From IMG/VR virus record IMGVR_UViG_3300016486_001578: DNA of 64,000 bases; one strand, given 5' to 3'. A model generated the notes under the pieces. That model saw nothing but the letters and a program-made list of their open reading frames with translations, searched no databases and had not been told where the DNA came from. Source of the DNA: a virus (Duplodnaviria > Caudoviricetes). Positions 599-52,554 of this stretch are shown piece after piece (positions within the stretch are counted from its first letter, which is position 1; every line of letters begins with the position of its first letter). A program made the translations under genes and the position numbers.

Positions 599-1324
599 AT
601 GACCCCACAACTAGAAAAAGTTTTCTTTAATTATATATTAAGGAATAAAAAATATTTCACAATAGTAAGTCCATTTTTCTTTCGAAATCCGGAGATACAG
701 TTTGTTTATGGGGTTATGATGAATTATATGAATAAATCATCTGAATCAAAAATACCAACACCAAGACAAATATTAGATATGGTGTCTCTGGAGGATAAGG
801 AGGGAAATGTAACAAAGGAGATATTAAAGTCCATACTTAAAATAGATCTAGAAGAATATAGTGAGAAAGATTTTATCTTACCTAAATTTAATGCTTGGGT
901 TTTATCAAATAGATTAAAAACAGGAACGGTTGATATAATAGAAGAAACTAGAAATTTAGAAAATATATCAGATTTCGATAAGGCGGTAGAAGCCGCAAAT
1001 AGAATAAAGGCTATTGTCGATGATATGTCTTCTACTAATTTTGTACAAGATGATGATTTAGGTTCTGATTTTGATGATCCAGATCATCATATGCAAGATT
1101 CTTCAAAATATAAAGTTCCTTGTGGATTTGAAACAATAGACCATATGCTAGGTGGTGGCTGGGATATACAAACATTGAACGTAATTATGGCTCAAACAAA
1201 CGGAGGAAAATGTTTTTTTAGTGATGGTGAGATAAATACTAGGAATATAAGCAATAAGGAAATAAAATCAATTAAAATAGGTAAAATTTTTACCAACATT
1301 AGCAAGGGACATACTAACATTTAA
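599..1324 (+). CDS. dnaB: Replicative helicase (T4 gp41/DnaB-like), N-terminal fragment fused to a 37-aa split-intein N-part
   Basis: GFETIDHMLGGG...LNVIMAQTNGGK (Walker A up to Lys) is followed at nt 1211 by CFFSDGEI (intein block A) and a stop 37 codons later. Confidence 0.9.
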   Translation: MTPQLEKVFFNYILRNKKYFTIVSPFFFRNPEIQFVYGVMMNYMNKSSESKIPTPRQILDMVSLEDKEGNVTKEILKSILKIDLEEYSEKDFILPKFNAWVLSNRLKTGTVDIIEETRNLENISDFDKAVEAANRIKAIVDDMSSTNFVQDDDLGSDFDDPDHHMQDSSKYKVPCGFETIDHMLGGGWDIQTLNVIMAQTNGGKCFFSDGEINTRNISNKEIKSIKIGKIFTNISKGHTNI

Positions 1325-1335
1325 TATATATTTAT

Positions 1336-2490
1336 ATGAATGCAAAGAAAAGATACAAGGATATAAATCTACCATTTATTTGTCCCATAAATAATAGGTC
1401 ATTTAACTCAACAAAAGGATTATCTGTTTATTTAACTAAAACACTAAAGACAGATCATAGTTTATATTATGATAAATATATAAACCACCGAGATTCTTCT
1501 TGTTTTTTCTGTGGAGAAAAAGGAAAGTTTATGTCGGCCGGTAAGGGATATAGAAATTTATGTAAAAACAAAGATTGTTTGAAAAAATCTATGAAATCAC
1601 ATTCGGTTGAGGGATTTATGTATAGAAACCTATGTTCTAAAGAAGAGGCCAAGATTTTGTTTGATGTTGAAAACGAAAGACAATTAAAGAAAAGGACAAA
1701 AACTGCTAATAAATTAAGAAAAAAAGATCCATTATGGGATAAAAAGAGAAGTAGAAATTGTAAAGAATTTTGGATAGAAAAGGGACTAACAGAAGAAGAA
1801 TCTATTATAAAAGCTAAAGAATCTATGGATGATATACACAAAAAAACATCTATTATTTTTGAATCAAATCCAAAGAAATATGCTTCTAAATATAACACAA
1901 AGATAGAATATTATTTAAAGAGAGGTCACTCTGAGGAAGAATCTTTGAATATTTTATCCGAGAGACAATCTACATTTTCTTTAAATAAATGTATAAAAGG
2001 ACATGGTGATAAAGTAGGAACCAAAATTTGGTTAAAAAGACAAGAAAAATGGCAAAAATCATTATCTGAAAATGGTAATATAAAAGGTGGTTATTCGAAA
2101 ATAAGTCAAATATTATTTTATGATATTTTAAAACATTTTGAGATAATAGAAAGAGACTCTATATTCTTTTGGACAAAGAATAAAGAACACCTTATAAAGT
2201 CTGATAAAAAAATATATTTATATGATTATACTGATACTAATAGAAAAAAAATAATAGAGTATAATGGTGATCAATATCACGCAAATCCGAGTATATACGA
2301 AGCCAATAGTTATCCGCATCCATATCACAAGAGTAATAAATATAGAGCAGTTGATATATGGGAAAGAGATAGAAATAAAATAAAATTAGCAGAAAATAAT
2401 GGATATGAAGTACTCGTTGTGTGGGATTCGGATTATAGAAAAAATAAAAAAGAAATAGTACAAAAATGCTTAAACTTTTTAAACAGTTAA
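1336..2490 (+). CDS. Free-standing putative homing endonuclease (Zn-binding N-terminus, repeats, Vsr-like C-terminal nuclease)
   Basis: It sits between the helicase halves and has CPI/CFFC motifs, F/YxxxxG(L/H)xEEES repeats and C-terminal YDY...IIEYNGDQYH...GYEVLVVWDSD. Confidence 0.8.
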   Translation: MNAKKRYKDINLPFICPINNRSFNSTKGLSVYLTKTLKTDHSLYYDKYINHRDSSCFFCGEKGKFMSAGKGYRNLCKNKDCLKKSMKSHSVEGFMYRNLCSKEEAKILFDVENERQLKKRTKTANKLRKKDPLWDKKRSRNCKEFWIEKGLTEEESIIKAKESMDDIHKKTSIIFESNPKKYASKYNTKIEYYLKRGHSEEESLNILSERQSTFSLNKCIKGHGDKVGTKIWLKRQEKWQKSLSENGNIKGGYSKISQILFYDILKHFEIIERDSIFFWTKNKEHLIKSDKKIYLYDYTDTNRKKIIEYNGDQYHANPSIYEANSYPHPYHKSNKYRAVDIWERDRNKIKLAENNGYEVLVVWDSDYRKNKKEIVQKCLNFLNS

Positions 2491-2494
2491 ATAA

Positions 2495-2527
2495 AAAAAG
2501 AGACAAATATAAAATTTGTCTCTTTTT
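2495..2527. terminator. Bidirectional intrinsic terminator between convergent ORFs
   Basis: Inverted repeat aaaaagagacaaat / atttgtctcttttt with A- and T-tracts. Confidence 0.75.
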
Positions 2528-2536
2528 ATTATTTAC

Positions 2537-2737
2537 TTATTTATCTAATTTATTCAAAATAAAGGGAGTTGCTATCAATAATGCTATTGTAGATGGTATA
2601 GTAAACCACATAGCAATTGGGAAATCTAAAACACTCTCTGAGCTAATTATTGTTGTTATTGTTAACAAACAGGCTATTAGTAAAATAGTGTATAGTACAT
2701 TTTTTTGAAAACTAAGGAATTCTTTTAACTTTTTCAT
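2537..2737 (-). CDS. Small two-TM membrane protein, antisense, inside the split helicase locus
   Basis: 66-aa ORF with two hydrophobic helices; TAATATATA motif upstream on the minus strand (2759-2767); terminator downstream. Confidence 0.6.
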   Translation of the reverse strand: MKKLKEFLSFQKNVLYTILLIACLLTITTIISSESVLDFPIAMWFTIPSTIALLIATPFILNKLDK

Positions 2738-2811
2738 ATCTTTAATATTTATTTTCTTTATATATTAAAAATTATAATCAAACAAATTATTAATATATTA
2801 TATAAATTAAT

Positions 2812-3981
2812 ATGTTAGATAATTATGAAATAATAGAAGCAGATTCTCTATTAGAAGGAAAATATGATAGACCACTATATGATAAATTTATTGAAGCTTA
2901 TGAAGTAGACAACTTAGAGGTTGATACACCAAATGGTTGGATAAAGATAGAAGGAATTGGTAAAACTATTGAATTTTATGAATGGGAAATACAAACATCT
3001 GGTGGAAAACATCTAATATGTGCAGATAAACATCTATTATATAGGTGTGATAATATGAATTTTTATAATAAAAAATGTGACATAACAGAAATATACTGCC
3101 AAGATTTGAATATAGGTGATTTTATAATGACTAAGGATGGTCCTGAGATGTTGATGGATATTTATAAAAATGGTAATAAATCGAATATGTATGATTTACA
3201 ATTATCAGAAGGCTCTAATAAACAATACTACACAAATGATATACTTAGTCATAATTCACTTTGGATGCAAAACTTTGCAGTTAGGTCTGCTGATCTTGGC
3301 TATAATGTACTTTACATTACGTTGGAAATGAATGAGCGAAAAGTTATGAAAAGGCTTGGTGCTATGAGATTGAAGATTCCTATAAATGATTATGATAAAA
3401 TGTCTAAAGATAGAGAATTTATAAAAAAGAGAATAAATTCACTTACTAAAAAAACTGGCGCAGTTGGTGGTGATTTGTTTGATAAAAAAATAGGTAAGAT
3501 AATTAGTAAATTCTGGGCTGCAGGAACTGCTAATATATCAGATTTTGATAATTACATTCAAGCACTAAAAGATAAGAGAGATATAAAAATAGATGTTATA
3601 ATAGTTGATTATATCGCTTTAATAGCACCAATTAAAGGTATTGGTTCTGATAGTCTTTATACTAAAGGGAAACAATTAGCAGAGGGTCTAAGAGCACTTG
3701 GTTCTAAATATATGTGTCCTGTTATAACTGGTGTGCAAGTGGCTAAGGATGCTTGGAACTCATCAGATATAACACTTGAGAGCGTACCTGAATCAAAAGC
3801 AATTGCAGAAACAGCAGATACATTCTTTTGTATAATAAGAACAGAAGAAATGAAAAGACAAAACTTATATAGATTTAAACTACTAAAACAAAGAGATGGT
3901 GATTTTTTAAGATCACAAATAAAATTAAACCTTAATCCAACCTTTTTGACTTTAGAGAAGGACGAATTTATAGATCAATAA
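2812..3981 (+). CDS. dnaB: 148-aa split-intein C-part fused to the C-terminal fragment of the helicase
   Basis: Hint motifs EVDTPNGW, CADKH, MYDL and YYTNDILSHN (ends 3255), then +1 Ser: SLWMQNFA...YITLEM...IIVDYI...SESKAIAETAD-type SF4 helicase motifs. Confidence 0.92.
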   Translation: MLDNYEIIEADSLLEGKYDRPLYDKFIEAYEVDNLEVDTPNGWIKIEGIGKTIEFYEWEIQTSGGKHLICADKHLLYRCDNMNFYNKKCDITEIYCQDLNIGDFIMTKDGPEMLMDIYKNGNKSNMYDLQLSEGSNKQYYTNDILSHNSLWMQNFAVRSADLGYNVLYITLEMNERKVMKRLGAMRLKIPINDYDKMSKDREFIKKRINSLTKKTGAVGGDLFDKKIGKIISKFWAAGTANISDFDNYIQALKDKRDIKIDVIIVDYIALIAPIKGIGSDSLYTKGKQLAEGLRALGSKYMCPVITGVQVAKDAWNSSDITLESVPESKAIAETADTFFCIIRTEEMKRQNLYRFKLLKQRDGDFLRSQIKLNLNPTFLTLEKDEFIDQ

Positions 3982-3998
3982 AAAATAAAATAGAATAT

Positions 3999-4895
<897 letters not shown>

Positions 4896-4987
4896 TCATA
4901 AAAAACCAATTAAAAACAAAAAACAACTATATCGGCTTATATTTTGAGTCAATATATATAGAACAAAAAAAATATAAAATATAAAAT

Positions 4988-6184
4988 ATGATAAAAGTTA
5001 TAAAGAGAAATGGTAAGAAGGAACCAGTTATGTTGGATAAAATCCTAGATAGAATAACACAACAAACATATGCGCTAGACAATAAATGGATTAGCCCATT
5101 TGATGTTGCACAAAAAGTTATAGCAGGAGTAGCTCCCAATATAAAAACATCTGTTTTGGATCAATTAGCAATGGAGACTGCTGCTTCTTTGGCTACCAAA
5201 CACCCAGATTATTCAATATTGGCCGCTAGATTGGCTATCACCGCATTACATAAAGAAACTAAAAAAAGCTTTTCTGATACGGTTAAGGATTTATATAAAT
5301 ACACAAATCCAATAACAGGCAAGAAAGCACCGATTGTGTCTAGGGAGTTTTATGAATTAGTAAAAGACAACAAAGATGAGTTAGATTCTGCTATCGTCCA
5401 TTCGAGAGACCATAATTTTGATTATTTTGGATACAAAACACTTGAGAAGTCCTATTTACTTAAAACAAACGGTAAAGTAGTTGAGAGACCACAATATATG
5501 TATATGAGAACTGCTTTACAAATATGGGGTGATAATTTAGAAAAAGTTAAATCGACTTATAACTTATTATCAGAGGGGTATTACACACATGCAACACCTA
5601 CTTTGTTTAATTCGGGCACCAATAGGCAACAATTATCTTCTTGTTTTTTATTAGATACAGAATCTGATTCTATTGAGGGTATTTTTAATACACTAAAAGA
5701 ATCTGCTCAAATATCTAAAAATGCTGGAGGAATTGGAATTTCTTTTAATAAAGTTAGAGCAAAGGGAACATATATTGCTGGTACTAATGGCTCATCAAAT
5801 GGTGTTATACCATTCTTGAAGATTTTTAATGAAACTGCTAGAGCGGTTGATCAATGCTTCACACCTGAGTCAAAAGTCATGACAGATAATGGTTTAGTAA
5901 ATATTGATGAAATTAAGAAAGGTGATTCCGTATTAACATCTGATGGTAAGTTTAATAAGGTTTTAGAAAGAAAAGAATTTATAAAAGATGAGGATTTTGT
6001 AGTAATTAAAACAAATAGTGGATTAAATAGGGTAACAAAAGAACACCAAATATTAGTTATTAGAAATCTATCAAAAGATATTGAAGACTCGGCTATTATA
6101 TTAGGTATAAAAAGTGGTGTATATAACATAGAATGGATATCTGCAAATGAACTATTAAAAAGTGATAAAATAGTAAAATATTAA
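4988..6184 (+). CDS. nrdA: Class I ribonucleotide reductase alpha, fragment 1 (ATP-cone to VDQ) plus 109-aa split-intein N-part
   Basis: VIKRNG ATP cone, ERPQ, ATPTLFNSG, LSSCF, GGIG, NETARAVDQ; then CFTPESKV... from nt 5855 with block B TKEH. Confidence 0.95.
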   Translation: MIKVIKRNGKKEPVMLDKILDRITQQTYALDNKWISPFDVAQKVIAGVAPNIKTSVLDQLAMETAASLATKHPDYSILAARLAITALHKETKKSFSDTVKDLYKYTNPITGKKAPIVSREFYELVKDNKDELDSAIVHSRDHNFDYFGYKTLEKSYLLKTNGKVVERPQYMYMRTALQIWGDNLEKVKSTYNLLSEGYYTHATPTLFNSGTNRQQLSSCFLLDTESDSIEGIFNTLKESAQISKNAGGIGISFNKVRAKGTYIAGTNGSSNGVIPFLKIFNETARAVDQCFTPESKVMTDNGLVNIDEIKKGDSVLTSDGKFNKVLERKEFIKDEDFVVIKTNSGLNRVTKEHQILVIRNLSKDIEDSAIILGIKSGVYNIEWISANELLKSDKIVKY

Positions 6185-6245
6185 TTTAATATATAGTAAT
6201 ATATACTTAGGTATATCCAAAATATATTAAATACTATTAAATAGA

Positions 6246-7148
6246 ATGATAAAGTTAACAAATGATATAGTTATAGAAAAGTTTATAAAAAAGCATGGAA
6301 ATAAATATATTTATAATTTAGTTGATTATAAAGGTGCAATTACTAAGGTTAGTATAATATGTAGAAAACATGGTTTATTTAAAATAACTCCAAATAGTCA
6401 TCTAAATGGAAGTGGATGTTATGAGTGTGGTAGAGAAAAAGTAAATGTATCAAGATTAACAAATAATGATAATTTTATAAGTAAATGTAAAATAATTCAT
6501 AATGATATTTATGACTATTCAAAAGTTGAATATAAAGGAATAAAAGAGTATGTTGTTATAATATGTAAAAGACACGGTGAATTTAAACAAAAGTCAGCAA
6601 AGCATCTACAGGGACAAGGTTGTAAAAGATGTAGTAATGAGAAAATGTTTGTTAATTTTGAAAAGATGTGTTTAGATAAATATTTAGGATACTCATATGG
6701 TGAAATGATATACAATGGTATGTATAATAAAATCATAATAACTTGTGAGAAACATGGTAATTTTGAAAAGACACCTATAGATTTTTATCACAAAGAAAGA
6801 CTTTGTCCAAAGTGTATAAATAGATGTAAGTCAAATGATGAAACAAAATGGTTAGATGAATTAAATATACCAATTGATAACAGAAATATCTATATAAAAT
6901 TTGGTAAAAAAACATTTTGTGTTGATGGAATAGACTATGATAATAAAGTAATATATGAATTCTATGGAGACTTCTTTCATGGGAATCCAAATGTTTATAA
7001 GAAAGATGACACTAATCCACTATTAAAGGAAACTTATGGTGAATTATATGATAAAACAATGAAGAAAGAAAAAATGATATTAGATAGTGGTTATAAGTTA
7101 GAAACTATCTGGGAAAGTGAATATAAAAAAGAAAAAAGAAAAATATGA
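6246..7148 (+). CDS. Free-standing putative homing endonuclease (CxxHG zinc-ribbon repeats plus Vsr-like nuclease)
   Basis: Three IxCxxHGxF...CxxC repeats; C-terminal VDG...IYEFYGDFFHGNP...GYKLETIWE; located between intein halves. Confidence 0.85.
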   Translation: MIKLTNDIVIEKFIKKHGNKYIYNLVDYKGAITKVSIICRKHGLFKITPNSHLNGSGCYECGREKVNVSRLTNNDNFISKCKIIHNDIYDYSKVEYKGIKEYVVIICKRHGEFKQKSAKHLQGQGCKRCSNEKMFVNFEKMCLDKYLGYSYGEMIYNGMYNKIIITCEKHGNFEKTPIDFYHKERLCPKCINRCKSNDETKWLDELNIPIDNRNIYIKFGKKTFCVDGIDYDNKVIYEFYGDFFHGNPNVYKKDDTNPLLKETYGELYDKTMKKEKMILDSGYKLETIWESEYKKEKRKI

Positions 7149-8408
7149 GAGATGTAATTGAAAGTGGTACTGAGTGGATTGAAGATCCAGTAGATCTTAA
7201 CTTAGATATAGACAAATTAAGATTTGAAACTATTGAAGATTTAACAATAGAAGAAATAAAAAATCAAAAAGTATATGATTTGGAGGTTGAAAACCAACAT
7301 AATTATATTGTTGATGGACTTGGATTAGTTCACAACGGTGGAGGTAAATAAGCGTCTGCTTCCACTTTAAAAAATCTGGAGGATTGCTGGGAGTTCCTTA
7401 GAGTTATTAATACTACAACGTAAAGAGTGATCTTATGCGTGAATGTTTGAAAAATTAATAAATTGGATAATCAGCAGCCGAGCATCTTAGGGATAAGATG
7501 AAGGTTCAACGACTAATGTTAGTAATGTAGAAAACAAGAAAACAACACGAGTACCAGACACATATTTTATGTGAAGATATAGTCTAAACTTATATGAAAG
7601 TATAAGAGAATAGGATAAAGAGCCTATTGTTAATACACAAATGAAACGCAAAGGAAGTATTGCTATTTATTTAGAGCCTTGGCACGCAGATGTTATGGAC
7701 TTTTTGGACCTTCGTAAAAACCAAGGTAAAGAAGAATTAAGAGCAAGAGATTTATTTTTGGCTATGTGGGTTAATGATCTATTTATGGAGAGAGTTGATT
7801 TAGATGAAGATTGGGCTTTGATGTGTCCGAATGAGTGTGATGGCCTTAATGAAACATATGGTGAAGAATTTAGAGAACTTTATATGAAATATGAAAGTGA
7901 AGGAAGATATAAAAAGGTAGTAAAGGCTAGGGATGTTTGGAATAAAATATTAGAATCACAAATTGAAACTGGTACTCCTTATATGTTATATAAAGATTCT
8001 ATTAACAGAAAATCAAACCAAAAAAACATAGGAATTATTAGAAGTTCTAATCTTTGTTTAGATGGTGATACTATAGTAGAATGTAGAGTCAATGGACTTG
8101 AAAGTGAATTAACAATGGTACAAATTGATGAAATCTTTAAATCTGGGCAAGAGATAGAAGTCTTAAGTATGGATGTTGCGACTGGTTTAAATGAATGGTG
8201 TTTAGTTGATAATTCAGGAATGACCAACAATGATGCTGAAACTATTAAAATAACCGATGAAGAAAATAACACTATTATATGCACACCAGAACATAAAGTA
8301 TGGACTAGTAATAGAGGTTATGTTATGGCTAAAAATTTAGTAGAGACAGATGAGTTAAAAATCAATAAAAAGTCGATTGTTGACAAAGGGTTATATACCT
8401 ATCTATAA
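7145..8408 (+). CDS. nrdA: NrdA fragment 2, spliced join(7145..7345,7644..8408): 64-aa IntC + GGGKRKGS...SSNL + 117-aa IntN
   Basis: VYDLEV...LVHN|GGG; intron removal restores [17 protein letters not shown] in frame; ETGTPY, SSNL, then CLDGDT...CTPEH from nt 8055. Confidence 0.88.
7346..7643 (+). ncRNA. Group I self-splicing intron (ORF-less, phage IA-like), 298 nt
   Basis: P ATTGCTGGGA 7383, Q AATCAGCAG 7469, R GTTCAACGACTA 7504, S AAGATATAGTCT 7574. P1 is exon GTGGAGGT paired with GCTTCCAC (7358-7365) with a U-G at the 5' splice site; P3 TCTGG/CCAGA; P7 GACTA/TAGTC; terminal G7643; P10 GCGT/ACGC. Confidence 0.93.
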
Positions 8409-8515
8409 AGAAGATTGGGAAAATAAATTTAAAAACAAAAAGGAAGAAATAATAAAGTTTCTTAAAAATTATAAAATTGTAAAAAATCAATATACAAAAA
8501 AAAATAAAGAATAGC

Positions 8516-9883
8516 ATGTTAAAAATAGAAAAAGTAAAAAATAGACCGGTTTATGATATAACCGTTAATAAAAATCATAACTTTTATGCTAACGATATAC
8601 TAGTACATAACTGTGCTGAGATTGTAGAAGCAACTGGAATTACTAAATCACAAAAAGATATTCTTAATAATAAGGAGTTATTAGATAGCTTGGGGTTGTC
8701 TGAATTTTATGGAAGAGAATCAGTTAATGAGACTGCGGTTTGTAACTTAGCATCTATTGCACTTCCTAAGTTTGTTAATAAAAACAAAACATATAACTTT
8801 AAGAAATTATATGATGTTGCTTATAATGCGGTTATTAATTTAAATAATGTTATTGATACAAATTATTATCCATCAGAATCTGCTAAATTTTCTAATATAT
8901 TACATAGACCAATTGGATTAGGAGTTCAAGGACTATCAGATGTTTTCTTTATGAGTGGATTTGCTTATGATTCTGAACAAGCCAAACATTTAAATAAAGA
9001 AATATTCGAAACGATATATTATGCATCCATTAAGGCTTCTTGTGACTTAGCAAAAGTTGATGGTGCTTATACAACATATGAAGGTTCTCCTATGTCGGAG
9101 GGTAAGTTCCAATTTGATTTATGGAATGTTACTCCAACTAAGAGGTGGGATTGGGATAAACTTAGACTAGAAGTTTTAGAATATGGTGTTAGAAATTCAC
9201 TAACTGGTTGTATTATGCCAACTGCATCAACTGCTAATATACTTGGTAATGAGGCCTCTTGTGAAGTACAGACATCAAATATGTATACAAGAGGTGTCTT
9301 ATCTGGAACTTTTATTTTAGTTAATAAATACTTAGTTAAAGAATTAGTTAAATTAGGAATATGGGATGATAATATTAGAAGAAAGATAATTTCTGAAAAT
9401 GGATCGGTACAGAATATTCCAGAAATACCAACGAATTTAAAGGAAGTATTTAAAACGGCATATGAAATAAAACAAAAAAATGTTATTGATATGGCGGCTG
9501 ATAGAGGAGCATTTGTTGATCAAACACAATCTATGAATATTTTCATGGATTCTCCAAACTTTGCTAAATTAACTGCTATGCATTTCCATGGTTGGGGTAG
9601 AAGAAGTTTTATGAGAGCTGATGATGGTTCTCCTATTTTGCCTAAAAACAAGGATATAAAGGTAGTTTATGATAAAGATGGAAATCCTAGATTTTATAAA
9701 GATGAGAGAAATTCATTAAAAACTGGTATGTATTATCTTAGAAATAAAGCTAAATCTGATGCTGTTAAATTTACGGTTCAAGATGATAAAAACGTTGAAG
9801 ACCAAGTTTCTGATCTAGAAACACAGATGTCTGATATTGCTTGTAGCCTTGATGATGAAGATTGTCTTGCTTGTGGGTCATAA
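8516..9883 (+). CDS. nrdA: 32-aa split-intein C-part plus NrdA fragment 3
   Basis: VYDITV...FYANDILVHN|CAEI, where +1 is the catalytic Cys of NLCxEI; VCNLASI, RPIGLGVQG, MPTAS, DQTQSMN, KTGMYYLR and C-terminal CLACGS. Confidence 0.95.
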   Translation: MLKIEKVKNRPVYDITVNKNHNFYANDILVHNCAEIVEATGITKSQKDILNNKELLDSLGLSEFYGRESVNETAVCNLASIALPKFVNKNKTYNFKKLYDVAYNAVINLNNVIDTNYYPSESAKFSNILHRPIGLGVQGLSDVFFMSGFAYDSEQAKHLNKEIFETIYYASIKASCDLAKVDGAYTTYEGSPMSEGKFQFDLWNVTPTKRWDWDKLRLEVLEYGVRNSLTGCIMPTASTANILGNEASCEVQTSNMYTRGVLSGTFILVNKYLVKELVKLGIWDDNIRRKIISENGSVQNIPEIPTNLKEVFKTAYEIKQKNVIDMAADRGAFVDQTQSMNIFMDSPNFAKLTAMHFHGWGRRSFMRADDGSPILPKNKDIKVVYDKDGNPRFYKDERNSLKTGMYYLRNKAKSDAVKFTVQDDKNVEDQVSDLETQMSDIACSLDDEDCLACGS

Positions 9884-26226: not shown

Positions 26227-27417
26227 TCAGGTTTTATCTATAATAGAATTAAATACTGTATAATTTTTATTTATAATAAATAAAAAATTATATCCTAATT
26301 CTATACACTTTTTCTTTTTTTCTTGATTTTTTTCATAGTATTTATTATAATAATAGCTAGATTTTATCTCAATAATTAAATTAAATTTACCAATATAAAA
26401 ATCTGGAAAATATTTTTTATTATTTCCATAAAATTGATAATCTAAACAGGGGCCTCTCTCTATTTCATTTATTATGTTTATACTACTTGAATGATCTAAG
26501 AAGTCCTTTTCGTATGTTCCTTGGTAATATAAGTTATTATTATATTTTGATATTTTTCTTGAATTTTTTTGTTGTTTACTAAAAAACTCTAATACTTGCA
26601 TAGGGTATTCAACACCATATCTATCTAAATTGGTTTGTTTTAATCTATTTTTAGATTCATCGGTCATGGAGTTAGATATGTATCCATATTTTTTCAACAT
26701 GGATTTCACCTTCTTATCCTTTATAATTTTTGATTTATTTGGACTATCAAACCCATATTTATATAAACTAGTTATTTTTGATTTTTCTCTGAAATCATTA
26801 GTATTCATATATGAGTGTTTATTATATTTATTTATACATGTATTTCGTCTATTAATCTTTACCTTTTCGCTTTTCCTAGAATCCTCAACACCATATCTCT
26901 CTAAATTGGTTTTCTTAGTTTTCTCTATTGTTAATTTAGATTGTAGAGAACACACAACACCATATCTCTCTAAATTGGTTTTCTTAGTTTTCTCCATGTT
27001 GTTGTAATTCTCATCACCATATCTTTCTAATTTAGTCTTCTTGGTCTTTTTAATATTTTGGTAATTCTCATCACCATATCTTTCTAATTTAGTCTTCTTG
27101 GTCTTTTTAATATTTTGGTAATTCTCATCACCATATCTTTCTAATTTAGTCTTCTTATTTTTGAATACAGCACAACTATTTGAGCATGAATATATATTAT
27201 ATTTTTTTATATTTTTTATATAACTATTGAATTGTAATTTCTTTATATTACCGCATATATCACATTCTACATTTACTAATATATTAGAACCTAGCCATAA
27301 ATCATTAGTGCCTATTATTACTTTGTCGCCTATTTTGGATAATATATTAATTTTTTTTAATTTAGATATTGTTACTGATGACTTAACATGTATCTCAATC
27401 CTTTTATCTAATATCAT
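26227..27417 (-). CDS. Putative homing endonuclease with KT(N/K)LERYG repeats and C-terminal PD-(D/E)XK domain
   Basis: CDICG, multiple ERYG repeats, YFPDFYI...IIEIKS. Confidence 0.75.
   Translation of the reverse strand: MILDKRIEIHVKSSVTISKLKKINILSKIGDKVIIGTNDLWLGSNILVNVECDICGNIKKLQFNSYIKNIKKYNIYSCSNSCAVFKNKKTKLERYGDENYQNIKKTKKTKLERYGDENYQNIKKTKKTKLERYGDENYNNMEKTKKTNLERYGVVCSLQSKLTIEKTKKTNLERYGVEDSRKSEKVKINRRNTCINKYNKHSYMNTNDFREKSKITSLYKYGFDSPNKSKIIKDKKVKSMLKKYGYISNSMTDESKNRLKQTNLDRYGVEYPMQVLEFFSKQQKNSRKISKYNNNLYYQGTYEKDFLDHSSSINIINEIERGPCLDYQFYGNNKKYFPDFYIGKFNLIIEIKSSYYYNKYYEKNQEKKKKCIELGYNFLFIINKNYTVFNSIIDKT
27004..27156. repeat. 57-nt exact tandem repeat, about 2.7 copies, inside the endonuclease gene
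   Basis: Units start at 27004, 27061 and 27118 and encode KKTKLERYGDENYQNIKKT. Confidence 0.9.
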
Positions 27418-28547: not shown

Positions 28548-29786
28548 TTATCCGAAAATATCTTCTGCGTCTGATATATCTGAAAATCCATTTGTCTCGT
28601 CTTCTTCGTCTTCTTCGATGGCTTTGTTGAAATTTTTCTCGACTTCTTCAATTTCATCGATTGATTTGAATCTGAAATAATCATTTACGATAGGTTCCAT
28701 TTTTTCTAAAACTTCTTGTGTGAATATTTCTGGTGTAAATAATTTTTTTAATGTGAATGATTTATCTAAATGTCTAACATACCATCTATTACCACCTGGT
28801 GTGAATGTAAATTCGCCTGTTTTTTTATCTACTAATGCTTTTCCTTTAGCAATTCCTATTTCTTCGAAAAACTCTGGTCTACAAAAAGCATCTAACCCAG
28901 TATATGCATTCATACCATTAGCAAATGATATATTAAATCTAATTTTTTTAGGCTTCGCTAATCTATTCTTTATTGTTTTAAACAATACACTAATTCCTGA
29001 TGATCCTAAATCCATATCATCTTCTTCTCCAGTTTTTAATTTAGATTTTGACATCATTCCTATTACTGATGAGGAATATAGAAGTCCGTTTCCTCCTTTC
29101 ATTACTGCTCTTGGAAATAAATCCATAGTTAAGTATGTATGGTTAGCTACTAATAATGGTATATCTAAAAATCCTAAGTCAGTGCTTATACTTCTAAATA
29201 GAGAACCAAATGCTTTAGCCTTCGTCATATCTTGTTTAACATCTCCTTTTAATAAATCCGCCTTTTCTTTATTGGATGCCATTTGTCCAAGTGAATCTAA
29301 AATAATCATTAATTTTGGTAATTCAAATCCGGACATTTTTTGGCTTTTTAAATCATCTATTAATTGTGATAATACCATATTTATATCTTCCACTTTATTA
29401 GATCTGATTAGTCTAAATTTATCGAGTGAATTATCAACTCCATATTTTGGTAAATCTTCCAAATCAATAGCTTGTTCTGTGTCTATGTATATTACCGAGT
29501 ATCCAGCTTTTTGTGCATGTTTGGCACAAGAATAGCACATAAATGATTTTCCTGCTCCGGACTCACCAGCAAATACACTAATTCTATTTGTTGCAACACC
29601 ACCTTTTAATAATCTACCGGACATTGCCGCATCGACTATATAAACTCCTGTTGTTATAAACTTCTTTTCTTTTATTTCCTTTTCTATTGTAATCGGTACT
29701 GATTTTGCAATATTATCCAATATTGTTCCGATTTTACTGAATTCGAATTTTTTATTTGCCTTAGTTGCTTTAGCTATTTTTGCCAT
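28548..29786 (-). CDS. recA: RecA/UvsX recombinase
   Basis: AGESGAGKS, YIDTE, ILDSLG, ANHTY, GGNGLLYSSS and KNR; uninterrupted. Confidence 0.92.
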   Translation of the reverse strand: MAKIAKATKANKKFEFSKIGTILDNIAKSVPITIEKEIKEKKFITTGVYIVDAAMSGRLLKGGVATNRISVFAGESGAGKSFMCYSCAKHAQKAGYSVIYIDTEQAIDLEDLPKYGVDNSLDKFRLIRSNKVEDINMVLSQLIDDLKSQKMSGFELPKLMIILDSLGQMASNKEKADLLKGDVKQDMTKAKAFGSLFRSISTDLGFLDIPLLVANHTYLTMDLFPRAVMKGGNGLLYSSSVIGMMSKSKLKTGEEDDMDLGSSGISVLFKTIKNRLAKPKKIRFNISFANGMNAYTGLDAFCRPEFFEEIGIAKGKALVDKKTGEFTFTPGGNRWYVRHLDKSFTLKKLFTPEIFTQEVLEKMEPIVNDYFRFKSIDEIEEVEKNFNKAIEEDEEDETNGFSDISDAEDIFG

Positions 29787-31517: not shown

Positions 31518-32137
31518 GTGATTGATATTTTTGATAAGAAAAAATAGACAAAGAATTTATAGTTTGTCATTCTGGTGGGGCCGTTGGTTCTGATTCTTTT
31601 TGGGAATCAGAGGGAGCAAAATATGGAATAAAAACAAAAGCCTATTCATATAAAACAAAAATACACAACTCTATTAATAAAGTAGAGATATCAAGAGATG
31701 ATTATTTAGAGGGAATTAATGAGGTTAAATTGGCCAATAGAGTACTTTGTAGATATGGAATAGATAAATATATGAATCTGTTAGCTAGAAATTGGGCACA
31801 AGTTAAGTATTCTGATAAACTATTTGCAATTGGTTATATTATAAATCCTGGTGAGAAAAATAAAAGAGGTTACTATAATAAGAGCGAATTTCAATCCATT
31901 GATGGAGGCACGGCATATGCTTTCAGAATGGCTATAAATAATAATAAACCTGTTTATGTATTTGACCAGGGATCAAATAGTTGGTTTAGGTGGTCATATG
32001 TATCTATGTCATTTATAAAAACAGATACGCCAATAATTGATTGTTTAAATTTTGCTGGAATAGGCACAAGAGAGCTAAGTGAGCTTGGTATGGATGCTAT
32101 AATAAACGTATATAAAAAGACCTTTAATATTTCATAA
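31518..32137 (+). CDS. SLOG/YspA-like nucleotide-binding protein; start uncertain, apparent -1 frameshift in an A6 run at 31539-31544
   Basis: The frame upstream of the 31730 ORF reads CHSGGAVGSD; later RN, GGTAYA and FAGIGTR. Confidence 0.65.
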
Positions 32138-32153
32138 TATCGATATTATTTAG

Positions 32154-32161
32154 TATATTTG
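32154..32161 (+). promoter_or_regulatory. Bacteroidota-type -7 promoter element TAnnTTTG (also 35901+, 62352+, 62807-, 63666-)
   Basis: TATATTTG or TATCTTTG sits just upstream of ORF starts in the correct orientation. Confidence 0.55.
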
Positions 32162-32166
32162 TATTC

Positions 32167-32802
32167 ATGAGATACAGAAATTATAAGTATATTTATCCAC
32201 CACGTCCAAAGAATGCTATTAGTCCTGATGATTTAGACTTTTGGGATGATGGTTCATTGATTGCTCAGCCAAAATTAAATGGCTCAAATTCTCTAATATT
32301 CACAAATGGTGTTGATGCTTATAAAATGGGCCGACATAAACAAATTTTATCTAATTTTAAACTAGATAGTAACGAAATTAAAGATATTTATAGAGGTGAT
32401 GGTTCTTGGATGGTTATAAATGGTGAATATATGAATAAATCAAAAAGTGATGAAAACCTAGAGATTTTCAATCATAAATTGGTGGTATTTGATATCCTAG
32501 TATATAACGGAAACTATATGGTTGGTTCTAAATTTTCAGATAGAGTTGACTTAATGGATGATTTGTATGGTCAAGTAAAATCAGAAAAAGAATATCTTTT
32601 CGGAATGACTGAAAACATTTATAGAGTAAAAACATATAGAAAAAACTTTAAAGGACTATTTGATAATTTTATTAAAATAGATATGTTAGAGGGTCTTGTT
32701 ATGAAAAGAGCTAATGCTAGATTGGAGAGAGGAAATAGTGAAAATAATAACCACAAAACACAAATAAAATGCCGCAAGAAAACCAAGCTTTATAAATATT
32801 AG
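32167..32802 (+). CDS. ATP-dependent ligase-like nucleotidyltransferase (adenylation domain only)
   Basis: Motif I QPKLNG, III INGE, IIIa VFDIL, IV EGLVMK, V QIKCR; no OB domain. Confidence 0.8.
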   Translation: MRYRNYKYIYPPRPKNAISPDDLDFWDDGSLIAQPKLNGSNSLIFTNGVDAYKMGRHKQILSNFKLDSNEIKDIYRGDGSWMVINGEYMNKSKSDENLEIFNHKLVVFDILVYNGNYMVGSKFSDRVDLMDDLYGQVKSEKEYLFGMTENIYRVKTYRKNFKGLFDNFIKIDMLEGLVMKRANARLERGNSENNNHKTQIKCRKKTKLYKY

Positions 32803-47456: not shown

Positions 47457-47471
47457 TAGATAAAGATAAAT

Positions 47472-48428
47472 ATGATAAAGAAGTATAAAGAATTTATAAA
47501 TGAAAATTTTAACTCTTTTGGAGAAGAAGTAGAATCAAAATATCAAGATGATTATATTAAAAATATAGTAAATAGATATATATCTACTGTTGATCCTGAT
47601 ATTAGGATATCTAATGCTATAAACTCTCTGGACGAAAAAACAATAAGGGAAATAAAATCACAAGTTGATAATTATTTAACCAATGGAATAGAAGAAAAAG
47701 AAGTTGAAGTAAATACATCTGTTGAATTAACCGAATCGGTTGATGTTTTGGAAAATGAAGTAGAGACCTCATATTCCGGTAAAGGAGTTTTTAAATCTTT
47801 TCTAAAATCTTTAACTGCTTTTGGTAAAAATGAAAATCAGATTAGACATGATATATGTCCTGATGATTTTTTGATTTATTACCAGTTGGATAATAACAAC
47901 AAATCCGATGTTGCTTCTGTTTTTTCTAGATTTAGGTCACTTAATTTAGATTTTGAATCTGTTGGTGATAATGTTATATTGTATTTTGGGATAAGAATGG
48001 ATTCGTATTTCGAATATGGTATGTCCGATGGTTCTAATAAAAAAATAATAGGTAAATTTAAAATAAACAAATCAACTATAAATTGGATATCAGGATTGAA
48101 TTTAAAGTCCGCTAAATCATTAAAATCAATTCTATCTAACTTGGATTATAAAAATATTAAAACATTATATAAAATAAAAAGTGATATAAAAAAATATGAA
48201 CCCGGTAAATATGAAAATAAATCACCCATTTATATAAATGATAGAGTTATTACATTTGGTTATTATGGTATTGGAAAATGGATAGATGGTAAAATGGATA
48301 ATGATGATTACCTTAATATGAAGAATAATATTAGCGAGTGGATAAATACAAAATCCTGGGGTGATAAGGTCACTTTTGGTGTTGTTGCTAAATCATTTTG
48401 GTTAAAAATTTACATTAAACTAAAGTAG
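47472..48428 (+). CDS. Hypothetical protein with MIKKYKEFINE motif
   Basis: 318-aa ORF. Confidence 0.7.
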   Translation: MIKKYKEFINENFNSFGEEVESKYQDDYIKNIVNRYISTVDPDIRISNAINSLDEKTIREIKSQVDNYLTNGIEEKEVEVNTSVELTESVDVLENEVETSYSGKGVFKSFLKSLTAFGKNENQIRHDICPDDFLIYYQLDNNNKSDVASVFSRFRSLNLDFESVGDNVILYFGIRMDSYFEYGMSDGSNKKIIGKFKINKSTINWISGLNLKSAKSLKSILSNLDYKNIKTLYKIKSDIKKYEPGKYENKSPIYINDRVITFGYYGIGKWIDGKMDNDDYLNMKNNISEWINTKSWGDKVTFGVVAKSFWLKIYIKLK

Positions 48429-48463
48429 TAAAAACACATATAATAAATAAAATAAAATAAATT

Positions 48464-48727
48464 ATGTCAATTAAAGAATCATCAATAAGAGATTACATAT
48501 CAAATATTGATTTCCGAAACGAATGGAGTATGAAATCTATAAGAGAAGATATGAGAAAATTCCTCGGTGAAGAACCGGGAATAGATGTGCATTACAAAAA
48601 AGATGTAATGGTAAATGAGTTCAGTGGATCATCAGAAGAAATTTCAGGAGTTGATAAAATAGAAATAGTATTCTTTGATTTAGATGATAAGTTTAAGAAA
48701 TTAGAATTTTTAGTAGGTGGAGTCTAA
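48464..48727 (+). CDS. Hypothetical protein
   Basis: 87-aa ORF. Confidence 0.6.
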   Translation: MSIKESSIRDYISNIDFRNEWSMKSIREDMRKFLGEEPGIDVHYKKDVMVNEFSGSSEEISGVDKIEIVFFDLDDKFKKLEFLVGGV

Positions 48728-49040
48728 GGAAAATAAAATATCAGTTGATGTTTTGGATTATTTAGGAAAACATGAAGATGGTATTATATCTCTAATATCA
48801 CTTGGTTATCTTGATAGTTTCTATGAAGCTACTTTTTTCTATACAAACGATTTAATAGCATTGACACCGGATGATAAATTAGAAGATTTACTCGGTTGTA
48901 AGATTGAAGATTGGGTTGGTTATCAGGAATTAGTTTTTGATATTCTCAAAAGAGTTGTTCCATTTGATCAAATGATCAATATGGTTGATGATTTTTCTCC
49001 CGAAAAATATGGAATATTCTTAACACAATCTAATATTTAA
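48717..49040 (+). CDS. Hypothetical protein
   Basis: 107-aa ORF with a GTG start. Confidence 0.55.
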   Translation: MESKENKISVDVLDYLGKHEDGIISLISLGYLDSFYEATFFYTNDLIALTPDDKLEDLLGCKIEDWVGYQELVFDILKRVVPFDQMINMVDDFSPEKYGIFLTQSNI

Positions 49041-49093
49041 AAAACCAAACATTTCTCATTTAATATTATATAATTAAAAAATAATATCAATGA

Positions 49094-49387
49094 ATGATTA
49101 TAAAAGAAATAGGAATAAGGGGATTTAAATCTTATGGTAATAATGAACAAAAAATAAAATTAAATATAAACAGTGGTGAATTAATACTACTTTCTGGAGC
49201 AAATGGTTCTGGTAAGTGTGTTGATGAGTCAACACTAATAGATGTACAAATAATTGATTTTGAGCCTAATTTAGAAAATTTAGAATTTTTAGACAAAACG
49301 GATGAGGGAAAGAGGATTTTTCTATATATAAAGAAATCTAATAAATCCTTGTATGAAAAAATTGAAAAATTTAGAAAAGGTCAATAA
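49094..49387 (+). CDS. sbcC: SbcC/Rad50 (T4 gp46-like) N-terminal fragment plus 56-aa split-intein N-part
   Basis: IRGFKSYGN...LLSGANGSGK, then CVDESTLIDV at nt 49217. Confidence 0.9.
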   Translation: MIIKEIGIRGFKSYGNNEQKIKLNINSGELILLSGANGSGKCVDESTLIDVQIIDFEPNLENLEFLDKTDEGKRIFLYIKKSNKSLYEKIEKFRKGQ

Positions 49388-50633
49388 AAAATCACTTAAT
49401 GATTATTTATTGGACTTCGAACCATCTATAATCGATGGTTACAAAAATATGTTCACAGATTCAGATTTTAAAAAGGGTAAAACCTCTTTTCTTTTGTATT
49501 TGAAGTCTAAGATAGGAATGCCTAAGATAGGCAGGAATAGCCTAAATTATTGGCTATCAAGGGGTTGGTCCATTGAAAGAGCAAAAGAATTTAGAGTTAG
49601 GATTAAGGGCGATCCAGAAAAATCACCAATGAATATAAATTTTTGGATAAAAAAGGGATATACCGAAGAAGAATCAAGATTTAAGATAAGATCCCAAAGA
49701 AAAATGAATATAGAGTATTGGTTATCAAGAGGATTTAATGAGAATGATTCTAAATTAAAGGTTAAATTGTTTCAATCAGAACAAAGTAAAAAAATAAATA
49801 AAAAGAGGTTACTTAATCCAGAAAAATATGATGATATAAGTAATAACCAAGTTAAATATTGGCAAAAAAAAGGTTATTCCGAAGAAGAATCAATTAAAAT
49901 GGTTAGTAAAAGACAATCTACCTTCTCTAAGAAAATATGTATAGAAAAATATGGAGAAAAGAAGGGAATAAAAATTTGGTCAAATCGACAAAAAAATTGG
50001 ATGAAGTCGATGAAAAGTTCAAAATATAATGGAGTTGATGGTAAATCAATCACAATAAACGAAAAGATAAAAAAATATGATATAGATAGATTGGTAGATA
50101 GTTTATCAATAAAAGATAGAGAATATTTTAAGAAAATATTTATAAAATCAAAAACCATAGAAGATTTTATATACAACTATAGTTCAAAATTTATCACAGA
50201 TGAAATATCACTATATAGAATACTATTACCCATTAAGCGAATGAAACTATTACAAGTGTATTATAATACAGATGAGAGTTATATAATGTCATTAATAATT
50301 CCAAAAATTGCTAGAGTTAAATCTAAGTATTCTTATATATCTTGGATAAATAATCATGTTTGTCGAAGTGATGGTGAATATATATTAGCCAGCTTCCTAA
50401 TAAAAAATAATTTAGAATATACATATGAAAAAACATATGAAGATAGTAAATATAGGTGTGATTTCTACTTAGAGGATTTTGGAATATATGTTGAATACTT
50501 AGGTATGAAACATGACACTTATAGTAGAAAAATTAATTTTTTAAATAAAAGAAAAATCAAACATATAGCCTCTAGTGATATAGAATATATTAAATCAAAG
50601 ATAAAAGAATATGTTAACATTAAAGATAGGTGA
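49353..50633 (+). CDS. Free-standing putative homing endonuclease (YWxxxG repeats plus PD-(D/E)XK domain)
   Basis: Four (Y/F)W..(K/R)G(W/Y/F) repeats, KRQSTFS...CI, C-terminal RSDGE...CDFYL...YVEYLG; overlaps both sbcC halves. Confidence 0.8.
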   Translation: MKKLKNLEKVNKKSLNDYLLDFEPSIIDGYKNMFTDSDFKKGKTSFLLYLKSKIGMPKIGRNSLNYWLSRGWSIERAKEFRVRIKGDPEKSPMNINFWIKKGYTEEESRFKIRSQRKMNIEYWLSRGFNENDSKLKVKLFQSEQSKKINKKRLLNPEKYDDISNNQVKYWQKKGYSEEESIKMVSKRQSTFSKKICIEKYGEKKGIKIWSNRQKNWMKSMKSSKYNGVDGKSITINEKIKKYDIDRLVDSLSIKDREYFKKIFIKSKTIEDFIYNYSSKFITDEISLYRILLPIKRMKLLQVYYNTDESYIMSLIIPKIARVKSKYSYISWINNHVCRSDGEYILASFLIKNNLEYTYEKTYEDSKYRCDFYLEDFGIYVEYLGMKHDTYSRKINFLNKRKIKHIASSDIEYIKSKIKEYVNIKDR

Positions 50634-52554
50634 TTTATATGAATTATCAAAAAATATAAATATTTTAGAATCAGACATCCGTGTATCTACCCCAGGTGGA
50701 TTGAAAAAGGTTTTTGCTGTTGATATAACAGCAAAAAATAGCGATGTGTTTTCTATAAAAGTTAATAAACATGAACTACTTTGCTCACCAGATCATCTAA
50801 TAAGATCAGAAGATATGTGGGTTAAATCTAAAGATTTAAAAATAAATTCCGTAATAGATACAAAATATGGCAAACTTACTGTTAAGGAGATATCAATTTT
50901 GGATATAAAGAGTGATTTGATGGATTTACATGTGGATGGTAGTGAATATTACACTAATGATATAATTAGTCACAACTCATCACTATTAGATTCTTTTGAC
51001 TTTACTCTATTTGGTAAAGTCAGGGGCAAAAAGAAAAAGTGGAGCACACTATCAACACTCGTTAATAGAATTAATGGAGAATTACTTAATTGTATAAGTT
51101 TCAACTCAAATGGAGTTGATGTTGAGGTAAAAAGAGGAATATCACCAAATAAACTGGAGCTTTGGGAAAATAATGTTCTAAATGAGAGAGCGGGCAAATC
51201 AAATATTGATGAAAAAATAGAAAAATATGTTGGTATGGATATTGAGACATTCAAATCATTCATTTCTATGTCTATAAATGATTTTAAGAACTTTATATCA
51301 TTAACAAACGAAGAGAAGAAAATATTACTCGATAAGTTATTTAACTTAGAGGTTATAAATATACTTAATAATATTCTGAAAGAAATAAACAAGGATAATA
51401 AAACAAGGATGGCTATACTAGACTCTGAGATTCGAACATTGGAAGAATCTATATCTTCTATGCAAATTTCTATAAAGAAATCTATTGAAAAGGAGAAACT
51501 AAATACAGAACAAGAGTTGGGAGAATTAGTTTCTTTGGTTGAGTCCAAGAAATCTGATTATATAACTATAAAAGAAAAGGTTGAAAAAGTAAAAGACAAA
51601 GAACAGATACTAAAAAAAGAAATTGATATAGAAAATAGGCAACTAATTAATATACAAAATGATGTTAAGAACTCAAATAGAGAAATATCATTATATGACT
51701 CTGGTAAATGCCCTACTTGTTCTACCGATTTTAATACAGACCATTTTCTAAACCTCAGAAGTTTGTTGGTCGAAAAAAGAGATGGTCATAATCTTCTTTT
51801 AGAAGAAGTTAAAACAAATATATCTAATATAAAGGCTAAGCAAGTTAAATTAAGGTCTATTGGTGATAAGATAAATTCATCATTTAGTGATATTAATTAT
51901 CTATTAAGAAGTTATAAATCAAAAATAGATGAATTAAAATCTAAAAGTAAAGATAAAAAAGATTCTGTTAATGTAGAAGAGTTTGAGAAGACAATTTCAG
52001 AAATGGATGAAAAAAAGAATAATTCACATACAAAAATTTCTGATTGTAAAGAAAAAGAATTATATTATAAAGAATTGAATAGAATTCTTAGTGAAGGCGG
52101 GGTTAAAAAATCCATAATATCTGGAATAATAAAGCCAATAAATCACTTTATTGATGAGAATGTTAAAAAAATGAGATTACCTTTTGTTGTTAAATTAAAT
52201 GAGACATTCACTGCTGAGATAAAATCATTAGGTTCTAAAATAGAACATGATACATTATCAACTGGTGAGACAAAAAAGATAAATATTGCTATTTTAATAG
52301 CTTATCTTAAGTTAATAAGAACTAAGAAACACATAAATATATTGTTTCTAGACGAGGTTTTCTCTTCAATTGACTTGGAGGGTATTGACTCTATACTAAC
52401 GCTCTTAAAATCGTTTGCAAACGACTACAACATAAATATATTCGTAGTACATCATGCCATTTTAAGCCAAGAAATGTTTGATAGAATAATAAGTATAAAT
52501 AAAGATGTTTTCTCTTCAATTGAAGAAATAAATTTAGATGAAAATTATGGATAA
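50611..52554 (+). CDS. sbcC: 122-aa split-intein C-part plus SbcC/Rad50 C-terminal fragment
   Basis: VSTPGG, CSPDH, LMDL, YYTNDIISHN (ends 50976)|SSLLDS; coiled coil with CPTC zinc hook; LSTGE signature and LFLDE Walker B. Confidence 0.92.
   Translation: MLTLKIGDLYELSKNINILESDIRVSTPGGLKKVFAVDITAKNSDVFSIKVNKHELLCSPDHLIRSEDMWVKSKDLKINSVIDTKYGKLTVKEISILDIKSDLMDLHVDGSEYYTNDIISHNSSLLDSFDFTLFGKVRGKKKKWSTLSTLVNRINGELLNCISFNSNGVDVEVKRGISPNKLELWENNVLNERAGKSNIDEKIEKYVGMDIETFKSFISMSINDFKNFISLTNEEKKILLDKLFNLEVINILNNILKEINKDNKTRMAILDSEIRTLEESISSMQISIKKSIEKEKLNTEQELGELVSLVESKKSDYITIKEKVEKVKDKEQILKKEIDIENRQLINIQNDVKNSNREISLYDSGKCPTCSTDFNTDHFLNLRSLLVEKRDGHNLLLEEVKTNISNIKAKQVKLRSIGDKINSSFSDINYLLRSYKSKIDELKSKSKDKKDSVNVEEFEKTISEMDEKKNNSHTKISDCKEKELYYKELNRILSEGGVKKSIISGIIKPINHFIDENVKKMRLPFVVKLNETFTAEIKSLGSKIEHDTLSTGETKKINIAILIAYLKLIRTKKHINILFLDEVFSSIDLEGIDSILTLLKSFANDYNINIFVVHHAILSQEMFDRIISINKDVFSSIEEINLDENYG

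Follow-up and report, generated by a model that had tools for sequence, protein, structure and literature searches.

Four co-resident split-intein cassettes in the helicase, NrdA and SbcC-like genes of an uncultured phage and a probable origin of their presumed orthogonality

When one phage genome carries several split inteins, are they kept from reacting with one another by selection, or would they be orthogonal simply by being unrelated? This question is raised by a stretch of 64,000 nucleotides (nt) from a virus of the Caudoviricetes (Duplodnaviria; IMG/VR virus record IMGVR_UViG_3300016486_001578), the whole of which is referred to here as the window. In this DNA, three DNA-metabolism genes, which encode a DnaB-like helicase, NrdA and an SbcC-like ATPase, are split into seven pieces by four pairs of N- and C-terminal intein halves (IntN and IntC). 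An initial annotation regarded the four pairs as a natural trans-splicing set whose orthogonality is enforced by selection. Our analysis of the sequence favored another reading, to which we assign a probability of roughly 0.75: the window derives from an AT-rich uncultured jumbo phage with four unrelated mobile split-intein cassettes of the fractured-gene type, and their probable orthogonality is a by-product of divergence.

A stretch of 51 kb of the same genome holds all four inteins, two of them inside a single gene, that of NrdA. The script-derived lengths of IntN and IntC are 37/148 amino acids (aa) in the helicase, 109/64 aa in NrdA intein 1, 117/32 aa in NrdA intein 2 and 56/122 aa in the SbcC-like protein, and the first residues after the inteins (+1) are Ser, Gly, Cys and Ser, respectively. 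The script thereby reproduced exactly the geometries and +1 residues of the initial annotation. Position 1 is Cys in all four inteins, block B reads CADKH in the helicase, TKEH in NrdA intein 1, TPEH in NrdA intein 2 and CSPDH in the SbcC-like protein, and the IntC halves end in SHN (helicase and SbcC) or VHN (both NrdA inteins). The marks of class 1 inteins (a first residue that is Cys or Ser, a block B of the form (T)xxH and a terminal His-Asn) are thus present in four of four, and the +1 nucleophile of this class (Cys, Ser or Thr) is present in the helicase, NrdA 2 and SbcC inteins and absent from NrdA intein 1. Two architectures could be distinguished: the helicase and SbcC inteins carry block B in IntC, and both NrdA inteins carry it in IntN. 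The helicase (37/148) and SbcC (56/122) inteins are split atypically, that is, before block B, with a short IntN and a long IntC containing blocks B, F and G.

The Pfam models Intein_splicing, Hint or Hint_2 matched five of the eight halves, all under the curated cut-offs (E values of 0.002 to 4e-6). Stronger evidence for inteins than these weak matches is the exact rejoining of the exteins to uninterrupted orthologues: after in silico removal of the inserts, the joined exteins aligned gap-free across all four junctions with orthologues lacking the inteins. At all four sites, we found the fractured-gene layout, in which two consecutive open reading frames (ORFs) on the same strand carry exteins that rebuild one orthologue (Table 1). 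A free-standing ORF of endonuclease type separates the intein halves in the helicase, NrdA 1 and SbcC cassettes, and none is present at NrdA site 2 in the window. In the relatives, the split point of each intein was the same with or without an endonuclease gene. The function of the host proteins is most likely restored by protein trans-splicing; judged by these residues, the helicase, NrdA site 2 and SbcC inteins would follow the canonical class 1 route.

Table 1. Coordinates of the split-intein loci, the intron and the recombinase gene in the window
Feature	Position	Strand	Description
DnaB-like helicase N-half	599..1324	+	PHROG 19 DnaB-like helicase E 1.6e-14
Helicase N-extein	599-1210	+	ends GGK in Walker A
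Helicase IntN, 37 aa	1211-1321	+	block A only
Endonuclease gene, free-standing, between helicase intein halves	1336..2490	+	Vsr-like by motif E..GD..H...W.S.Y
Helicase C-half	2812..3981	+	Pfam DnaB_C E 1.7e-12
Helicase IntC, 148 aa	2812-3255	+	blocks B (CADKH), F, G (SHN); then Ser+1, DnaB_C extein
NrdA piece 1	4988..6184	+	Pfam ATP-cone, Ribonuc_red_lgN, lgC, Hint_2, Hint
ATP-cone and NrdA N-extein	4988-5854	+	ends VDQ
IntN1, 109 aa	5855-6181	+	Cys1, block B TKEH
Endonuclease gene, free-standing, between IntN1 and IntC1	6246..7148	+	treble-clef zinc-finger repeats, putative Vsr-like C-terminal domain
IntC1 ORF	7145..7345	+	IntC1 64 aa (7145-7336) ends VHN; 9-nt exon 7337-7345 = GGG
Group I intron without ORF	7346..7643	+	RF00028 59.5 bits (cut-off 50), E 1.1e-14; 298 nt
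NrdA middle piece	7644..8408	+	Pfam Ribonuc_red_lgC 75-213 E 1.2e-56; Intein_splicing
NrdA middle extein	7644-8054	+	ends SSNL
IntN2, 117 aa	8055-8405	+	block B TPEH; PDB match NrdJ-1 intein E 6e-12
NrdA C-piece	8516..9883	+	Pfam Ribonuc_red_lgC E 7.8e-103
IntC2, 32 aa	8516-8611	+	ends VHN; then Cys+1 (CAEI, thiyl-radical Cys region), NrdA C-extein
SbcC-like N-piece	49094..49387	+	Pfam SMC_N and AAA_23 on residues 3-42
SbcC-like N-extein, 41 aa, ends GSGK in Walker A; IntN, 56 aa	IntN 49217-49384	+	
ORF between SbcC intein halves, overlapping both	49353..50633	+	presumed homing endonuclease
SbcC-like C-piece	50611..52554	+	PHROG 77 SbcC-like E 1.1e-57; Pfam SbcC_Walker_B
SbcC-like IntC, 122 aa	50611-50976	+	blocks B (CSPDH), F, G (SHN); then Ser+1, C-extein
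UvsX/RecA-like recombinase, single uninterrupted ORF	28548..29786	-	PHROG 97 UvsX-like E 1e-50; Pfam RecA E 6.7e-8

The relatives used for comparison were loci designated by L numbers, an NrdA search having returned 80 IMG/VR loci, and five genomes or genome fragments (G001-G005). At the helicase junction, the matches to the two exteins lie directly next to each other in about 30 loci without the intein, and the split point is the same in relatives lacking the endonuclease gene. The helicase IntC, for which the ratio of nonsynonymous to synonymous substitution rates (dN/dS) was 0.17, matched CatC, a consensus atypical intein, by sequence in the PDB (E value of 5.7e-4). Its AlphaFold2 model (predicted local distance difference test score of 77.5, alignment of 27 sequences) gave gp41-1, VidaL and Cat as the top fold matches (E values of 5e-6 to 5e-5), and every listed PDB match was an intein or another HINT-fold domain. 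The arrangement of IntC followed by helicase is common to 410 protein clusters. The ORF at 1336-2490 showed a weak match to Pfam REase_MTES_1575 (E value of 0.009) and a match to phrog_22677 (E value of 7e-21); its E..GD..H motif was read by eye, and a PDB sequence search returned no match to I-Bth0305I. The C-terminal nuclease domains of this ORF and of the ORF at 6246-7148 are 29% identical, and both match phrog_22677.

At the SbcC-like locus, the rejoined exteins can be aligned over their full length with the SbcC proteins of G003-G005, which lack the intein, with GNGKSSLLESF running over the junction. The SbcC-like IntC matched gp41-1 and CatC in the PDB, and its layout is common to 27 protein clusters. 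The ORF at 49353-50633 had no match in Pfam or PHROG. A 100-aa middle region is 42% identical to that of the ORF at 1336-2490, and a 39%-identical homologue occupies the same position in G002.

In NrdA, the two rebuilt junctions read VDQGGGKRKGS and SSNLCAEIVE when compared with the uninterrupted protein of L006. The ORF between IntN1 and IntC1 matched PHROG 681 endonuclease (E value of 3.8e-33), PHROG 559 and the Pfam families DUF723 and DUF4379, and IntC1 matched Pfam Intein_splicing over model positions 125-155 of 155 (E value of 4e-6). IntN1 is 58-83% identical to its counterparts in L001-L005 and has a dN/dS of 0.10-0.22, the values against L004 and L005 being set aside as invalid because of indel misalignment; dN/dS was 0.15 for IntC1. 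IntC2 is 89-97% identical in the relatives, with a dN/dS of 0.03. At site 2, just 108 nt (8409-8515) lie between the intein halves in the window, in contrast to 900-970 nt in the relatives, where this stretch is presumably an endonuclease gene. The site-2 cassette therefore looks like one that has lost its endonuclease and kept the split. Between fractured copies with dS > 1, dN/dS was 0.05-0.07 for the NrdA exteins and 0.03-0.22 for the intein halves overall. Because the exteins are under purifying selection at this divergence, the three-piece NrdA appears to be functional in at least three lineages (the window, L001 and L002/L003); that dS is near saturation, which makes the dN/dS values rough, weighs against this argument.

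Could the four inteins nevertheless come from different phages, joined by a chimeric metagenomic assembly? The sequence is indeed uncultured and assembly-derived, and a megablast search against phage records did not find a close relative of the window. However, its GC content stays at 26-31% throughout, which is AT-rich and phage-like, and the gene order over 9-49 kb is that of two near-complete relatives: the segment is collinear with G003 (from about 189.7 kb down to 120.9 kb) and, except for one inverted block, with G004, ending beside SbcC in both. G003, G004 and G005 are complete relatives of 436-483 kb (95-98% complete), and the close clade from the NrdA search belongs to phages of this size. 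Moreover, independent contigs hold three of the four inteins together, namely the helicase, NrdA 1 and NrdA 2 inteins in L001-L003 and the helicase and NrdA 2 inteins (L020) with the SbcC split intein and its endonuclease in G002. The uniform composition, the collinearity and the independent contigs argue against an assembly artifact, which we consider extremely improbable, and the placement of all four pairs in one genome by the initial annotation is borne out.

The distribution of the four inteins argues against a co-adapted set. Judged from the readable stretches, the relatives carry from none to three of the four. The helicase intein occurs alone in L012, L013, L033 and L042, NrdA intein 1 alone and next to an intact helicase in L004, NrdA intein 2 alone in L027, and the helicase and NrdA 2 inteins together in L019-L021 and L041; about 30 loci have none. 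In L089, a 617-kb JGI contig, the helicase intein is split, NrdA is uninterrupted and the neighboring helicase has a contiguous Hint domain. A Pfam intein scan of G001-G005 gave 0, 1, 2, 3 and 7 matches. Since the relatives hold any subset, the four do not represent a fixed, co-adapted set. One observation weighs against an independent history: the helicase and NrdA 2 inteins co-occur beyond independence, in eight of the nine loci with NrdA intein 2, so that for these two, separate gain and loss is not strictly shown. This association may reflect shared ancestry or linkage, the two genes being about 1.7 kb apart.

Two further observations concern the relatives. The intein load differs sharply among related genomes: Pfam matched 7 times in a fragment of 28% completeness and 0 times in a genome of 95% completeness. 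Another split intein (DE/CLHP, the slash marking the junction here and below) is located in the helicase upstream of the DnaB-like gene in four loci (L012:1951, L013:1951, L038:580 and L042:3837); in L089, it is the helicase corresponding to this host that has the contiguous Hint domain.

We then considered how far the four inteins could react with each other. The reasoning of the initial annotation that cross-pairing would yield aberrant products is sound, as the middle NrdA chain bears halves of two inteins. The joined inteins are, however, only 25-37% identical pairwise, their BLASTP similarity is limited to the level of blocks, and 8 of the 12 non-cognate pairs would have block B either absent or doubled. 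The four architecturally possible pairs are helicase/SbcC and NrdA 1/NrdA 2, each in both directions. The helicase and SbcC IntN halves share no recognizable similarity past Cys1. Published matrices found mutual orthogonality for 15 out of 16 split inteins (PMC7090010) and no splicing in any of the 20 heterologous pairs formed by gp41-1, gp41-8, IMPDH-1, NrdJ-1 and Npu DnaE (PMC11168065). Three points count against orthogonality of our four. Identity between the IntC halves of the helicase and SbcC inteins, which are split in the same loop, is 30% over 115 aa; the residual cross-talk in PMC7090010 came mostly from atypically split inteins, which is a caveat for these same two inteins; and IntC1 and IntC2 share 47% identity over their final 32 aa, which makes NrdA 1/NrdA 2 the pair most at risk. 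Nevertheless, a cross-reaction between the two NrdA inteins cannot dominate, because the three-piece NrdA has been kept functional in at least three lineages. On balance, the sequences suggest that the four inteins are probably mutually orthogonal, and no special selection would be needed for this, as divergent split inteins are orthogonal by default (PMC7090010, PMC11168065).

Charge complementarity between the halves was also tried as a specificity code and dropped as too crude. The net charges of IntN/IntC are +3/-14 in the helicase, -1/-12 in NrdA 1, -12/+2 in NrdA 2 and -2/-3 in the SbcC intein; IntN2 and IntC1 are both strongly acidic, which speaks weakly against their pairing, and IntN1 with IntC2 is not disfavored.

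The competing proposal holds that selection in the infected cell keeps the four inteins orthogonal and that "splice-gating" is a deliberate control of dNTP supply, helicase loading and end-processing from which recombination is exempt. It can draw on the presence of all four inteins in one genome, on the harm that a cross-reaction would do to NrdA, on the survival of NrdA as three pieces, under purifying selection, in no fewer than three lineages and on the recombinase, since the UvsX/RecA-like gene is one uninterrupted ORF, as had been noted earlier. Yet one 95%-complete relative is without any Pfam-detectable intein and the others hold any subset, which indicates that the combination is recent and variable, and divergent inteins are orthogonal even when not co-resident (PMC7090010, PMC11168065). 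The bias of inteins toward replication, repair and nucleotide-metabolism genes is described as general (PMC4760082). As for splice-gating, no regulatory element or condition sensor was found, and this part of the initial annotation is unsupported. A sigma-70 promoter scan for co-expression returned fewer sites than the shuffled sequences (64 versus 75), and the motif ATTATATAAW upstream of three of the pieces, with 19 sites against 9.3 +/- 3.9 expected, was neither clearly enriched nor specific to intein genes. The four would be expressed in the same infected cell; we regard a selected, splice-gated set of them as quite improbable.

The intein at NrdA site 1 is the truly odd component of the four. 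IntC1 is followed by three Gly codons and a stop, and a group I intron begins 9 nt downstream of the intein and separates IntC1-GGG from the rest of the middle extein. The element scored above the Rfam gathering threshold; read by eye, exon GGUGGAGGU and intron GCUUCCACU form a P1 helix whose splice-site pair is U-G, and the intron ends in a G at position 7643. An Rfam run over the whole window at gathering thresholds gave no match, and the intron was found when 500 nt were searched alone. Splicing of this predicted intron joins GGG to KRKGS and restores VDQ-GGGKRKGS; the true +1 residue of intein 1 is therefore Gly. The sequence VHN/GGGK is identical in L001-L005, so that Gly occupies +1 in six of six split copies, and each of the five relatives with NrdA intein 1 has an intron-like sequence after IntC1. 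In another phage clade, contiguous inteins with LAGLIDADG domains reside at the same VDQ/GGG site, many with Gly+1; L065 has Ser at this position.

Several side observations relate to this site. The VDQ/GGG inteins with Gly+1 form a family (the window at 7334-7345, L001-L005 and L047-L065), and the contigs of the clade with contiguous copies are mostly 15-66 kb long. A 39-nt stretch of the intron (7571-7609) matches a record of a crAss-like phage at 97% identity and looks like the conserved intron core. In L001 (4271-5218), the stretch from GGG to KRKGS is about 945 nt long, versus about 298 nt elsewhere, and no endonuclease gene lies between IntN1 and IntC1; this intron may carry an ORF.

Canonical protein splicing requires Cys, Ser or Thr at +1. 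The Gly at this position is at odds with that mechanism and counts against our reading: NrdA intein 1 appears to be constrained, but the canonical third step would not be usable. Accordingly, the description of the four as trans-splicing inteins would hold for the helicase, NrdA 2 and SbcC inteins, which have the canonical residues, and is unproven for NrdA intein 1, which lacks the +1 nucleophile. The same holds for the proposed circularization of the middle NrdA chain through IntC1 and IntN2, since it needs a +1 nucleophile where Gly is found.

One possibility, which we consider rather unlikely, is that NrdA intein 1 does not ligate at all and acts as a non-covalent clasp or by cleavage only, NrdA then working as associated chains. 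The recurrence of Gly+1 in all split copies and in many of the contiguous LAGLIDADG-bearing copies would fit, and a split NrdA assembling without ligation is documented for phage Aeh1 (PMC3045599). Against this, Cys1, TKEH and the terminal His-Asn are conserved and dN/dS is 0.10-0.22, which points to retained chemistry; without excision, the contiguous versions would keep about 360 aa inserted at the conserved QGG motif; and Ser+1 is present at the same site in L065. A-type bacterial intein-like domains, moreover, can reportedly splice without a +1 nucleophile. The opposite possibility is that nature has already validated the co-resident inteins as an orthogonal set and that NrdA is made from three chains by ordered tandem trans-splicing, with ligation at Gly+1 occurring without a nucleophile from the C-extein. 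From the sequence, this bolder scheme also seems doubtful. If true, nucleophile-free ligation would define a new mechanistic class of inteins and would also block circularization of the middle NrdA piece.

In the reading that we prefer, four unrelated fractured-gene cassettes would have invaded the DnaB-like helicase, the class I NrdA and the SbcC-like ATPase, each as a selfish element gained and lost separately. Three cassettes would still hold their free-standing endonuclease genes, and NrdA site 2 would have lost its own in this genome. Protein trans-splicing would restore the host proteins, by the canonical class 1 route at three sites, and NrdA site 1 would either ligate non-canonically or merely hold the pieces together. 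Mutual orthogonality would follow from deep divergence and two incompatible split architectures, with no need for dedicated co-adaptation.

Two loci outside the intein genes may be mentioned. A free-standing homing-endonuclease-like gene (26227-27417, minus strand; DUF7487 and PHROG homing endonuclease) is separated from the UvsX-like gene by about 1.1 kb that contain one ORF. Of two adjacent ORFs at 31730-32802 (plus strand), only the second (32167-32802) contains an ATP-dependent DNA ligase domain, and the first (31730-32137) has no match; the ligase may be split over the two.

The window is an unusually dense new example of a layout known since 2009, when Dassa et al. described fractured genes in which split inteins occur together with free-standing homing endonucleases (gp41-1 to gp41-8, NrdA-1 to NrdA-7, NrdJ-1 and IMPDH-1; PMC2677866). 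As in that study, where the endonucleases are Vsr-like or GIY-YIG, two ORFs on the same strand each carry an intein half, with an endonuclease gene between them at three of the four sites, and the hosts are phage DNA-metabolism genes, including gp41-type helicase and NrdA. Vsr-like (EDxHD) homing endonucleases are known from the same work and from I-Bth0305I (PMC3239194). The NrdA site of PMC2677866 is site 2 here, directly before the thiyl-radical Cys, and its gp41-7 likewise lacks an endonuclease. Those loci were short metagenomic fragments in which co-residence was not visible, whereas here four lie within 51 kb and two in one gene. SbcC was not among its eight host types, nor was an NrdA site 1 with Gly+1 and an adjacent group I intron described there.

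Unlike inteins with the canonical split position, those of the helicase and SbcC have their break ahead of block B. They resemble in this respect the atypically split AceL-TerL, GOS-TerL, VidaL, PolB16 OarG and Cat inteins (PDB 6dsl, 6vgv, 8cpn; PMC10189870), which combine a short IntN lacking block B with a long IntC containing blocks B, F and G. The hosts differ, being terminase, UvsX and PolB in the known cases and the Walker A motifs of the helicase and SbcC here; the IntN halves are 15-37 aa long in the former (PMC10189870) versus 37 and 56 aa, and identity is only about 20-24%. The NrdA of Aeromonas phage Aeh1, split by the mobE endonuclease (Crona et al. 2011, PMC3045599), is likewise a phage enzyme broken by a mobile endonuclease gene and still functional. 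Its pieces assemble without intein or ligation, whereas in the window every break is bordered by intein halves whose catalytic residues are conserved. The curated orthogonal sets (Pinto 2020, PMC7090010; Romero-Casanas 2024, PMC11168065) were assembled by humans from unrelated sources and assayed, in contrast to the present set, which is natural, co-resident and known from sequence alone; the three-piece NrdA is a natural counterpart of tandem trans-splicing. In our literature search, we came across neither a phage genome described as having four natural split inteins nor an enzyme naturally built from three chains, an absence that such a search does not prove.

Split inteins without cross-talk serve as tools for joining three or more protein pieces. 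The four co-resident inteins are good candidates for a ready-made orthogonal set, with two of them in one enzyme that still appears functional, and the short-IntN architecture of the helicase and SbcC inteins suits peptide synthesis. For the biology of these viruses, the varying subsets in the relatives show how freely split-intein cassettes come and go in giant phages, and NrdA indicates that dividing an essential enzyme among three chains, with an intron in addition, is tolerable for a phage.

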